Part shown: piece after piece, positions 13,433-49,642 of the stretch | Layout of the letters: each line of letters begins with the position of its first letter | Position numbering within the stretch: the stretch's first letter is position 1 | Assembly: GCF_050320075.1 (NCBI RefSeq) | Contig: NZ_CP190018.1 | DNA: 64,000 bases | DNA from: Escherichia coli | Lineage (GTDB): Bacteria > Pseudomonadota > Gammaproteobacteria > Enterobacterales > Enterobacteriaceae | Reading direction: 5' to 3' (one strand) | Notes under the pieces: model-generated | What the model was told of the DNA's origin: nothing | Database searches by the model: none | Seen by the model: the letters and a program-made list of their open reading frames with translations, nothing else | Position numbers and translations under genes: made by a program

Positions 13433-13804
13433 AGCTCCTCCTTAATGACAGGGTTGCGAAGCCCTGATTCTCTTCAGGGTGAATATTAAAGATAACACAA
13501 ACATCGCGTAACGATTTGATAACAACCCAAATTGATAAAAGAGGAGAAAGCTTGTGGCAAAACAAATGAAAACCCCGCCGCAGCGGGGTCAGGGATCAGT
13601 GAGTAATGATCCAGAGGAGTTCGGCCCAGAAGAGCATCGACAGAGAAAATGCGCCCATCCAGGACCAATATTTCATATTTGTGTTGATCATAGGCTACAC
13701 CTTTAACGGTTATTACTTTGTGTTGAGATAACTCAACCTGTTATTGCTGCGGTGTATTAAAAGCCCTGTAATTCATTAAAAATGGGTAATAAGAATGATG
13801 ATAA

Positions 13805-13972
13805 TTATTGTTTCGGCTGATCATCTTCAGCAAACAGTTCTATAAAGGCTTGCTGCTGCGATGTTAGTTGCCAGTCGTCTGGAATAACGACGGAACATTC
13901 CCGTTTCGTTTCTGTTTCATTGTCACTATGCTGGCATAATGGTGACGACTCCAGTTGCTCCTGACCGACCAT
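13805..13972 (-). CDS. yciX: Small protein YciX, 55 aa
   Basis: ORF 13805..13993 trimmed to MVGQEQLESSPLCQHSDNETETKRECSVVIPDDWQ..., 55 aa; lies between cysB and acnA as in the K-12 map. Confidence 0.6.
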   Translation of the reverse strand: MVGQEQLESSPLCQHSDNETETKRECSVVIPDDWQLTSQQQAFIELFAEDDQPKQ

Positions 13973-37735: not shown

Positions 37736-37839
37736 CCAGACTGCCAGTCCTTCGGGGCTGGCGCTGTATCTCCTCTGTTCTCCTCAGGAAAATCATAGTA
37801 GCATCGCGCCTGTGATTTTCCTTTTAAGTCGGTTTTACC

Positions 37840-38238
37840 ATGTCTACAACACATAACGTCCCTCAGGGCGATCTTGTTTTACGTACTTTAGCCATGCCCG
37901 CCGATACCAATGCCAATGGTGACATCTTTGGTGGTTGGTTAATGTCACAAATGGATATTGGCGGCGCTATTCTGGCGAAAGAAATTGCCCACGGTCGCGT
38001 AGTGACCGTGCGGGTTGAAGGAATGACTTTCTTACGACCGGTTGCGGTCGGCGATGTGGTGTGCTGCTATGCACGCTGTGTCCAGAAAGGGACGACATCG
38101 GTTAGCATTAATATTGAAGTGTGGGTGAAAAAAGTCGCGTCTGAACCCATTGGGCAACGCTATAAAGCGACAGAAGCATTATTTAAGTATGTCGCGGTTG
38201 ATCCTGAAGGAAAACCTCGCGCCTTACCTGTTGAGTAA
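37840..38238 (+). CDS. yciA: Acyl-CoA thioesterase (hotdog fold) YciA, 132 aa
   Basis: 132 aa; hotdog thioesterase signature around DIFGGWLMSQMD. Confidence 0.85.
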   Translation: MSTTHNVPQGDLVLRTLAMPADTNANGDIFGGWLMSQMDIGGAILAKEIAHGRVVTVRVEGMTFLRPVAVGDVVCCYARCVQKGTTSVSINIEVWVKKVASEPIGQRYKATEALFKYVAVDPEGKPRALPVE

Positions 38239-38277
38239 TAATCAAAAGCCTCCGGTCGGAGGCTTTTGACTTTATGC

Positions 38278-38997
38278 TTACTGAATTTCGGTGGTGCCGT
38301 TAATTTTAAACAGGATATTCACCACAATCCCACTGCCTGGCTTACCCGGCTCATAACGCCATCTGCGCATCGCATTTTTCACCTCACGCTCAAACATATT
38401 CGCAGGCTTGGCTGAGAGGATTTGTACGTTATCCACGCGACCATCCGGCGTGACGTCAAATTTAACTTTAACCTGCCCTTCAATGCGCAATGCCTGTGCT
38501 CGTGCCGGATACTGCGGCTGATTACGGCTTAATGCGCGTGGTCCTGAAGCCACACTGGTAACCGGCTTGCTGGTTGCAGCCGTCGCCGTACTTGATGTCG
38601 GGCGCGCGGGCGCCGTATTTTCAAACGGTGATGCCGGACGCGACTCTACGGGTTTGACATCGCGTTTTGGCTGTTCCTGTACCTTTTTCACCGGCTTCGG
38701 TTTTGGCTTAGGTTTCGGCTTCGGCTTTTCAATGACCACCGGTGCTTCTTTTGGCGGTTCGGGGATCGGCTCAGGTTCCGGTTCTGGCTCTACCACCGGC
38801 TCCGGTGGCGGCTGAACGGCTTGTGGCGGTTCGAGATCCGCAGGCGCAACCATCGTGACAGAAATTGGCTGCGCAGGCGCAGGTAGTTCAATAACCTGAT
38901 GTACCGAGGTATAGAGCAGACCCGCCACAACAGCACCATGAATGCAGACCGAAAGTAACGTCGGCCAGGGGAAGCGGCGAGGTAAATCAAGGGTCAT
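38278..38997 (-). CDS. tonB: TonB energy transducer, 239 aa
   Basis: ORF trimmed to [26 protein letters not shown]; characteristic (EP)n and (KP)n repeats. Confidence 0.95.
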
Positions 38998-39040
38998 TGA
39001 AGTCATAATCATTTCAGTAGAAAAACCAGGCCTCGATTTT

Positions 39041-39066
39041 AAATGCAAATAGCAATCATATTCAAT
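39041..39066 (-). promoter_or_regulatory. Candidate Fur box in the tonB promoter region
   Basis: Minus-strand sequence attgaatatgattgctatttgcattt resembles the Fur consensus and lies about 45-70 nt upstream of the tonB start. Confidence 0.5.
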
Positions 39067-39220
39067 AAGGCAAGACGATCAGGATCAGTGAAAATGTCAT
39101 TTTTGGCGTAATTGACCTTACTTTATGCATGGTCTTAACAAAGACATCATCTTTCCGTTGCAGATCTTCGCCCTTTCAAATAACGTACTTTACAACTTTC
39201 CCGAACAAGGAGTTGTGCCC

Positions 39221-39517
39221 GTGTTGTATGTTATTTACGCTCAAGACAAAGCTGATAGCCTCGAAAAACGCCTTTCCGTTCGTCCGGCACATTTAGCACG
39301 TTTACAGTTACTGCATGATGAAGGTCGTTTGTTGACAGCTGGTCCAATGCCAGCGGTAGACAGTAACGATCCAGGGGCTGCGGGATTTACTGGCTCAACC
39401 GTTATTGCTGAATTTGAATCGCTGGAAGCAGCTCAGGCCTGGGCCGATGCTGACCCGTACGTAGCGGCAGGAGTCTATGAACACGTTTCAGTGAAACCAT
39501 TTAAGAAAGTGTTCTGA
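39221..39517 (+). CDS. yciI: YciI-like (Dabb-fold) protein, 98 aa, GTG start
   Basis: ORF 39125..39517 trimmed to the GTG at 39221 ([17 protein letters not shown]) preceded by aaggag 8 nt upstream. Confidence 0.8.
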
Positions 39518-39817
39518 ATAGAGATTCAATATTTAAGGGCACGGTTTTTGCAACCGTGTTCTTGTTTGGCCTTTCCTTATAGGTCGGTCAGTGCATTCAC
39601 CCCCACAAGCAGATAATAACTTTATCTGTATTTCTTTATATGATGTAAGCATATTCAGGAAAAATGCCCTTTCCTGACGCAGAGTTGCTCACTCAAAACC
39701 TTTGATTACTGCGGATAAAGTCATCTACTATTGTTTAACACATTCACGCGCTGCATGTATGTTCAGAAAATGTGCACGCTCAGATAATTAAACAAAATTG
39801 TGGTTACAGAGGTATCA

Positions 39818-41071
39818 GTGAGTCACTGGGCTACATTCAAACAAACAGCAACTAATTTATGGGTGACCCTACGGCACGACATTCTCGCGCTGGCCGTCTT
39901 TTTAAATGGATTGCTTATTTTTAAAACAATCTATGGTATGTCGGTCAATTTGCTAGATATTTTCCATATCAAAGCATTTTCAGAGTTGGATCTCTCCTTG
40001 CTGGCAAACGCCCCACTCTTTATGCTCGGCGTCTTTCTTGTCCTGAACTCCATTGGCTTACTGTTCCGGGCAAAGCTCGCATGGGCAATCAGTATCATTT
40101 TGTTGTTGATAGCGCTAATTTACACCCTGCATTTTTATCCCTGGCTGAAATTTAGTATTGGATTTTGCATTTTTACGCTGGTGTTTTTGCTGATACTGCG
40201 CAAAGACTTCTCCCACAGTAGCGCCGCAGCCGGGACAATTTTCGCATTTATTAGTTTCACGACGTTACTGTTTTACTCCACCTACGGTGCGCTTTATTTA
40301 AGCGAAGGTTTTAATCCGCGAATAGAAAGTTTGATGACCGCGTTCTATTTTTCGATAGAAACCATGTCAACCGTCGGCTATGGCGATATTGTCCCTGTTT
40401 CTGAATCAGCACGATTGTTCACTATTTCGGTCATTATTTCCGGCATTACCGTTTTTGCCACCTCTATGACCTCAATTTTTGGTCCGCTTATCCGCGGGGG
40501 ATTCAACAAACTTGTAAAAGGAAACAATCATACAATGCATCGTAAAGATCATTTTATTGTTTGCGGACATTCGATTCTCGCCATCAATACGATCCTGCAA
40601 CTGAATCAACGCGGACAAAACGTAACGGTTATCAGCAACTTGCCTGAAGATGATATCAAGCAACTTGAGCAACGCTTAGGCGATAACGCTGATGTTATCC
40701 CCGGTGACAGTAATGACAGTTCAGTCTTGAAGAAAGCGGGAATCGATCGTTGCCGGGCCATTCTGGCGCTGAGTGATAACGATGCAGATAACGCGTTTGT
40801 TGTACTCTCGGCAAAAGATATGAGCAGTGATGTCAAAACAGTTCTCGCCGTCAGTGATAGCAAAAACCTGAATAAGATTAAGATGGTACATCCGGATATC
40901 ATTCTCTCGCCGCAACTGTTTGGCAGCGAAATTCTGGCGCGAGTTTTAAATGGTGAAGAGATTAATAATGATATGCTCGTTTCAATGTTGTTGAACTCCG
41001 GTCATGGCATTTTCAGCGATAACGATGAACAAGAAACGAAAGCTGACAGTAAAGAATCGGCGCAAAAATAG
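39818..41071 (+). CDS. kch: Voltage-gated potassium channel Kch, 417 aa, GTG start
   Basis: Selectivity filter TVGYGD, six TM segments, C-terminal RCK/TrkA-N domain; start trimmed to the GTG giving MSHWATFKQ. Confidence 0.85.
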   Translation: MSHWATFKQTATNLWVTLRHDILALAVFLNGLLIFKTIYGMSVNLLDIFHIKAFSELDLSLLANAPLFMLGVFLVLNSIGLLFRAKLAWAISIILLLIALIYTLHFYPWLKFSIGFCIFTLVFLLILRKDFSHSSAAAGTIFAFISFTTLLFYSTYGALYLSEGFNPRIESLMTAFYFSIETMSTVGYGDIVPVSESARLFTISVIISGITVFATSMTSIFGPLIRGGFNKLVKGNNHTMHRKDHFIVCGHSILAINTILQLNQRGQNVTVISNLPEDDIKQLEQRLGDNADVIPGDSNDSSVLKKAGIDRCRAILALSDNDADNAFVVLSAKDMSSDVKTVLAVSDSKNLNKIKMVHPDIILSPQLFGSEILARVLNGEEINNDMLVSMLLNSGHGIFSDNDEQETKADSKESAQK

Positions 41072-48905: not shown

Positions 48906-49642
48906 TGTTTTTTGGACTCCCTCATTATAATTACTGGTATTAACCAGCATGTGTAATCCCGGATTGGGACCCTGCACAGGCTCGGAGACTTTCTGCTGTC
49001 AGGTTACTTTATCGTTACGTATTACTATCACCGACTTTATTTATTCTGGTGATTCAGACGATCACCTTATGTCGATTCGTACTGTGTCTCCCCTGTCGAG
49101 ACACATTATTCTTTCGCGACGCTCTTTAATTGTTAATTATTCTCATTACCAATAAAGAATCGTCTGGCGGTTGCCCGGAAAGTACCAAATGCGGTTCTTA
49201 CTCGCCAATACATTTTGCAAAATTGTTAAGCAATTCTCTTTTATTGACCGTATCAGAATCTATAGCTTGCATCCATGTCTTAACAAACATCTTTTAATTC
49301 AATCAAATAGAGATTGGTTAAGCATGTCTCTCTTTTCTGATTACAGTTCCAGTAGTGAAATGCACAATAATTTAACAATTGATTATTATTTAGCACTTTC
49401 CTCTACCAAAGGCAGTGGAATTACTAATATCATTTCAATTATTCTTCAGCAAGCCCAGGATTATGATGTGGCGAAAATAACATGATGGTGAGGAGAAGCA
49501 GTTAAGGAAATCCTTATAACCAACTGTAATTTGAGAAGAATATTTTCACCCATTCCTTTTGCTTTTGATAACTGCGCGGGAACAAAGTAAAAATAATGAC
49601 GAAGTAAACGGAGCATGACAGCTCCGTTTCATTTGAAAGGAA

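Follow-up and report, generated by a model that had tools for sequence, protein, structure and literature searches.

The gene on the minus strand at 38278..38997 is an ordinary chromosomal E. coli tonB, and both features that an earlier note had pointed out in it, the proline-rich repeats and a Fur-like site upstream, hold. Our reading, to which we assign a probability of about 0.95, is that this is chromosomal tonB with an X-Pro spacer and a low-information Fur operator that occludes the promoter. The DNA analysed is a 64-kb stretch, hereafter the window, whose source is the E. coli chromosome in the orientation opposite to K-12; gene identity, feature positions, repeats, variation and conservation were established here. 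Accounts of tonB, of its X-Pro spacer and of its control by Fur at the promoter go back to the 1980s and 1990s; all three are already known, and nothing is new here in that respect. The check quantifies how rarely the Glu-Pro (EP) and Lys-Pro (KP) arrays change in natural E. coli, and it illustrates that a weak score against a position weight matrix (PWM) is no disproof of a real operator, since the tonB site is the lowest-scoring of the footprinted sites and yet among the most conserved non-coding blocks at its locus.

The 901 bases around the feature are 100% identical to those of strain CFSAN061763 and were matched in 5422 of 5426 complete E. coli genomes, and the features in the matching records are annotated tonB and yciA. 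The locus is laid out as follows.

37840-38238, plus strand: yciA, convergent with tonB
38242..38269, both strands possible: putative hairpin terminator in the gap where tonB and yciA converge, from a terminator scan
38278..38997, minus strand: tonB coding sequence, ATG at 38997 and stop at 38278, 239 aa plus stop, starting MTLDLPRRF
39221-39517, plus strand: yciI, the other neighbour of tonB

The order yciA-tonB-yciI is that of the orthologous chromosomal position, with an intergenic region of 223 bp upstream of tonB; K-12 tonB (b1252) has the same two neighbours, the same promoter/operator and the same four EP and six KP units. Against the curated NCBIfam equivalog NF008083 the protein scores 539.5 bits over residues 1-239, above the cutoff of 448. 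Pfam assigns residues 33-157 to TonB_N (1.3e-37) and residues 160-230 to TonB_C (5.8e-20), and the three-part architecture of TonB is present: an N-terminal membrane anchor with the S16/H20/L27/S31 motif, a proline-rich spacer and a C-terminal domain. The full-length E. coli TonB in the PDB (9ddo) matches with an E value of 2.9e-150. Identity to K-12 TonB is 99%, the two substitutions being A51 for T51 and P133 for L133. The operator is likewise unchanged from K-12; downstream of the -10 hexamer and ahead of the ATG there is one base change, G for A at window 39031. No functional change is expected from these differences.

The ATG at 38997 is the tonB start in all annotated records examined. 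The mechanical list of open reading frames begins the same frame further upstream at a TTG, giving 256 aa. Two further in-frame ATGs (M-I-M-T-S-M) and the TTG lie within 38998-39048, upstream of the annotated start, and the annotated ATG is not preceded by any evident strong Shine-Dalgarno sequence.

At the other end of the gene, the hairpin between tonB and yciA has a 14-bp G+C-rich stem flanked by an A-run and a T-run; its tonB-sense RNA folds at -22.2 kcal/mol (z = -6.8), and it looks like a terminator that may be used from both strands. An Rfam scan of 37800-39700 returned no known RNA element, the sole match being a chance microRNA at E = 0.85. Among the matches to tonB in E. coli, 13 lie on records labelled as plasmids. 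The one inspected, 'plasmid unnamed1' of strain KE48 (385 kb), carries yciI-tonB-yciA in chromosomal order; probably it is a piece of the chromosome or a replicon with the wrong label.

The EPEPEPEP segment and the Lys-Pro run which the earlier note described as encoded in tonB can both be read directly from the translation. The interval given there for the whole feature, 38700-39066, misses 8 nt of the KP array and the last 1 nt of the upstream string.

38752..38802, minus strand: acidic X-Pro segment, E66-P82, from the sequence and codon listing
38767-38790, minus strand: uninterrupted (Glu-Pro)4, residues 70-77
38692..38727, minus strand: basic (Lys-Pro)6, K91-P102 (residues 91-102), an imperfect 6-nt tandem array

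The six KP units read AAGCCG, AAGCCG, AAACCT, AAGCCA, AAACCG and AAGCCG. Both arrays are imperfect at the DNA level because synonymous codons alternate within them (GAG/GAA, CCA/CCG/CCT and AAG/AAA). Tandem Repeats Finder describes the KP array with period 6, 6.0 copies, 76% matches and a score of 44, and passes over the EP array even when the minimum score is 30.

The X-Pro repeats of TonB are described as an extended polyproline-II rod that spans the periplasm, by which the C-terminal domain reaches the outer membrane (PMC5413942, PMC12204202); the polyproline-II conformation, taken from the literature, is a second-hand statement via PMC5413942. Paired acidic and basic polyproline-II segments have been reported in TonB of Enterobacterales, Pasteurellales and B. 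pertussis (PMC12204202). In the protein encoded here the acidic Glu-Pro run and the basic Lys-Pro run would together form one charged, extended periplasmic spacer of the polyproline-II type, which would let membrane-anchored TonB contact outer-membrane transporters. The X-Pro spacers of TonB in other Enterobacterales and domain II of TolA are similar in being periplasm-spanning linkers from a membrane anchor to a C-terminal domain. The former differ from the present spacer by a few units (EP 2-5, KP 3-8), and domain II of E. coli TolA is alpha-helical, unlike the X-Pro spacer of TonB. TonB that lacks residues 66-100 retains its activity as long as the periplasm is not expanded (PMC3005593). 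For this reason the 'rigid spacer' of the earlier note is helpful rather than essential.

Repeat number does vary between strains, a comparison which the earlier note had proposed, but only in about 2-3% of E. coli genomes. Allele frequencies were estimated as BLAST identity bands of short queries over 5423 E. coli records and are approximate.

81-nt query with six KP units: 5302 records at 95% identity or more, 121 at 80-95%, 8 with less than 80% coverage
87-nt query with seven KP units: 126 records at 95% identity or more, about 2.3%
86-nt query of the EP region: length change in 2 records only, 5421 invariant

Six KP units are kept in about 97.6% of these records and four EP units in 99.96%, and the number of KP length variants comes to 121-129 with the six-unit query against 126 with the seven-unit query. 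The seven-unit KP allele has an additional AAGCCG beside two identical AAGCCG units. An allele with two KP units was seen once, in strain 7_33_46A. It arose by a 24-nt loss between AAGCCG units, and its existence fits the tolerated deletion of the spacer (PMC3005593). Strain KE48, the one examined of the 2 records with an EP length variant, has five EP units through duplication of GAACCG. All length alleles examined are gains or losses of whole 6-nt units beside identical units, in frame, and the rare variation in the EP and KP arrays resembles the usual slippage between adjacent units of identical sequence.

Outside the X-Pro arrays, an in-frame deletion of the 3 nt of the Gln107 codon (window 38677-38679) changes VKKVQEQ to VKKVEQ and gives a protein of 238 aa. 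This allele is common in E. coli, being present in CFT073, in N50 and in 6 of 30 evenly sampled records.

Across species, a degenerate DNA pattern for the tonB coding motif was applied to Enterobacteriaceae with one genome per species and recovered 108 loci, 91 of them complete orthologues.

Uninterrupted EP copies in the 91 orthologues: two in 2 species, three in 21, four in 56, five in 12
Uninterrupted KP copies in the 91 orthologues: three in 1 species, four in 9, five in 34, six in 34, seven in 10, eight in 3

It could be argued that the arrays are a hypervariable, contingency-type locus that tunes the length of TonB between strains, as length alleles exist (seven KP in about 126 records, two KP in one strain and an EP variant in 2 records) and unit counts differ between species. 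The simple-sequence contingency loci of pathogens are also tandem short-unit arrays within coding regions in which units change beside identical units. We nevertheless consider such a role very improbable and reject it on frequency and repeat quality. The near-constancy of six KP and four EP units in E. coli is not that of a frequently changing locus, and TonB length stays within 236-245 aa across the 91 species despite the spread in EP and KP counts. The 6-nt unit, a multiple of three, keeps changes in frame, the array is short, and it holds no long perfect frame-shifting tract, the mixed synonymous codons breaking the DNA repeat down to 76% matches; in contrast to contingency loci, variation is rare and there is no on/off switch.

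Upstream of the gene, the Fur-like string attgaatatgattgctatttgcattt was said to lie 45-70 nt before the start codon, and this placing is exact: it occupies 39067..39042 on the minus strand, or -70..-45 counted from the first base of the start codon. The elements of this region are listed below.

39036..39065, minus strand: sigma-70 promoter of tonB, with -35 TTGAAT at 39065..39060 (-68..-63), an 18-nt spacer and -10 TAAAAT at 39041..39036 (-44..-39)
39038..39070, minus strand: Fur operator of the tonB promoter, the published footprint mapped to the window (-73..-41), containing 39042-39067
39045-39063 (-66..-48), minus strand: PWM-positive 19-mer GAATATGATTGCTATTTGC, 6.8 bits
39051-39069, minus strand: overlapping PWM-positive 19-mer, 6 bp upstream, 3.4 bits
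38998..39016 (-19..-1), minus strand: second Fur-box-like 19-mer TGAAATGATTATGACTTCA, abutting the tonB ATG, 12.6 bits, fifth best in the window

The promoter matches the consensus at 9 of 12 positions, and no other sigma-70-like promoter turned up in the region; the scan by itself is not significant (1 found versus 1.1 expected). Its -35 hexamer and spacer, the latter including the stretch GATTGCTATT, are covered by attgaatatgattgctatttgcattt, which stops 1 nt before the -10 hexamer. Operator and promoter overlap, the 19-mer at -66..-48 overlying the -35 and adjoining the -10.

The PWM employed here is symmetric, 19 bp long and derived from 17 K-12 Fur-bound promoter regions from which tonB was excluded, with site coordinates from PMC2189734 (Tables 3 and 4); its information is 17.5 bits and its consensus GATAATGATAATCATTATC. 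Leave-one-out scores of the 17 training sites were 12.2-22.5 bits, and the tonB 19-mer, at 6.8 bits, lies below all of them. GAATATGATTGCTATTTGC agrees with the classical Fur consensus GATAATGATAATCATTATC at 12 of 19 positions, which is equalled by 108 of the 63,982 19-mers in the window. By PWM score it ranks 30th in the window, and about 0.17 chance matches are expected in the 223-bp intergenic region. Two positive controls listed in PMC2189734 were recovered, the oppA Fur site (49132-49150, about -233, 18.5 bits) and the acnA cluster of overlapping sites (13785-13815, listed at about -371 and lying some 350-380 nt upstream of acnA). The second-best match in the window, GGCAATCAGTATCATTTTG (14.9 bits, 40084-40102), lies within the kch coding region.

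Sequence statistics alone would not establish the tonB Fur site; its position, published binding and conservation do. The resemblance to a Fur operator which the earlier note had seen is modest by sequence alone, and the string lies inside the published footprint and is conserved. The PWM scan proposed there gives a weak score to a site that is nevertheless experimentally bound, and for that reason a weak score, offered at the time as grounds for refutation, is not a valid test in the case of tonB.

Fur binding to this promoter and its derepression in fur mutants are documented in the literature. The tonB footprint has been reported at NC_000913.2 1309040-1309072 with three overlapping sites, the best of 11.5 bits (PMC2189734 Table 3); no other footprinted site in that table has a best score as low. 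The Fur model of PMC2189734 includes tonB in its training set (11.5 bits) and ours excludes it (6.8 bits). With the tonB ATG at 1309113 (PMC1807945), the footprint, whose coordinates are second-hand from PMC2189734 and PMC1807945, corresponds to -73..-41 or window 39070..39038 and contains the whole of attgaatatgattgctatttgcattt. Two Fur walkers of 8.7 and 11.5 bits have been placed over an 11.7-bit promoter, where they compete with -35 contacts (PMC1807945); transcription has been mapped to start 8 nt downstream of this promoter, which the Fur sites overlap (PMC1807945 Fig. 5). Fur ChIP-exo gave 13-nt windows which we mapped to -56..-44 in W3110 and to -54..-42 in BL21(DE3) and CFT073, in all three strains under iron-replete conditions only (PMC10164565). 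Together these windows (-56..-42) lie inside the footprint and overlap the downstream half of attgaatatgattgctatttgcattt. In fur deletion mutants tonB was up by log2 1.6-4.8 in 8 of 9 strains, the derepression in MG1655 being modest at log2 1.6 (PMC10164565), and tonB is among the operons found to be both Fur-bound and Fur-regulated (PMC4676285).

In the MG1655 sheet of Dataset 2 of PMC10164565, a peak at 1309033-1309056 (U00096.2), which is -80..-57 in the tonB promoter, is labelled acnA, and gmr is given for the next peak, which lies directly upstream of acnA. That part of the table apparently has its gene labels shifted by one row.

The Fur operators of fepA-fes, fhuA, exbB, cirA, fecA and entC share with that of tonB the overlap with a promoter, overlapping sub-sites at 6-bp spacing, binding under iron-replete conditions and derepression in fur mutants. 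The tonB operator differs from them in its far lower information content, 6.8 versus 12-22 bits.

Of 5423 E. coli records, 5402 (99.6%) share all 39 nt of promoter and operator at 39034-39072. Beyond the species, 106 other Enterobacteriaceae species of more than 20 genera were compared, and 97 of them carry the same tonB 19-mer; their upstream regions had been retrieved via the coding-region pattern only. Mean column identity in 107 aligned Enterobacteriaceae sequences was distributed as follows.

-120..-74, upstream flank: 0.36
-73..-41, footprint: 0.95
-40..-20: 0.73
-19..-1: 0.83

Together these figures indicate that the non-coding tonB operator is under purifying selection. Part of the conservation of the block must be owed to the promoter hexamers and not to Fur. 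A promoter spacer normally requires no specific sequence, and an invariant one is a prediction of an overlapping operator.

One may ask whether the upstream string is merely an A+T-rich sigma-70 promoter whose likeness to a Fur box is coincidental, with iron control of tonB being indirect. The weak PWM score, the 12 of 19 consensus matches and the roughly 0.17 hits to be expected by chance in each intergenic region would allow this, and the -35 and -10 hexamers also lie inside the conserved block. It is, however, difficult to reconcile with a spacer that stays invariant in more than 20 genera, with a published footprint and ChIP-exo windows on the exact stretch, the latter seen only when iron is replete, and with the derepression of tonB in fur mutants; we judge a promoter without direct Fur control to be highly implausible. 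A different proposal concerns TGAAATGATTATGACTTCA at -19..-1, which might be a functional or additional Fur site, acting as a roadblock or extending the Fur array towards the start codon. Its 12.6 bits place it fifth among some 64,000 positions, with about 0.017 chance matches expected in the intergenic region, and a 9-1-9 inverted-repeat symmetry can be read from its sequence. Against this, it lies outside the published footprint and all ChIP-exo windows, and its high score is confined to Escherichia: other Enterobacteriaceae score between -9 and 12.6 bits (median 5.9), with C as the sixth base in many genera (9.4 bits) and much lower or negative values in others. Its conserved part, GATTATGACTTCA, moreover coincides with translation-initiation signals and the two in-frame upstream ATGs. 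We therefore regard a role for TGAAATGATTATGACTTCA as unlikely, and it is slightly less likely still that it would be a genuine second Fur site which an Escherichia-specific C-to-T change has raised from 9.4 to 12.6 bits. Were TGAAATGATTATGACTTCA bound, Fur would cover both the promoter and the translation-initiation region, and iron control might be tighter or differently graded.

The preferred reading remains a single low-information operator over the tonB promoter. It consists of two overlapping sites 6 bp apart, reaching from the -35 hexamer through the spacer to about the -10. When iron is available, Fe2+-Fur would occupy the operator and compete with RNA polymerase, resulting in modest repression by promoter occlusion, and when iron is scarce the tonB promoter would be freed. 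That the allele in the window works by occlusion is our inference, and a strong one because its promoter/operator is the sequence present in 99.6% of E. coli genomes.

In other E. coli a mobile element was encountered at tonB. In about 225 of 5426 complete genomes (~4%) homology to the normal locus ends 2 nt before the tonB ATG, the upstream region being replaced by an element with a divergent, large 'recombinase family protein' gene and phage tail genes; the native Fur-box promoter of these carriers is displaced to the far side of the element, beside yciI. The element is absent from the 64-kb window. The recombinase region had no match in a phage collection at megablast sensitivity, and a literature search on tonB as a prophage integration site found nothing useful. 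In strain MMC-J-0020 the tonB-adjacent element is about 13 kb long and looks degraded, and the 90-bp spacer between recombinase and tonB has a Fur-box match, GCAATTGATTATCATTTAA, at -74 with 16.5 bits, much stronger than the native site. An element that swaps the upstream region of tonB and yet keeps a Fur box may deserve separate study. Related upstream regions with strong Fur boxes were also found in one Enterobacter asburiae genome and one Yokenella regensburgei genome.
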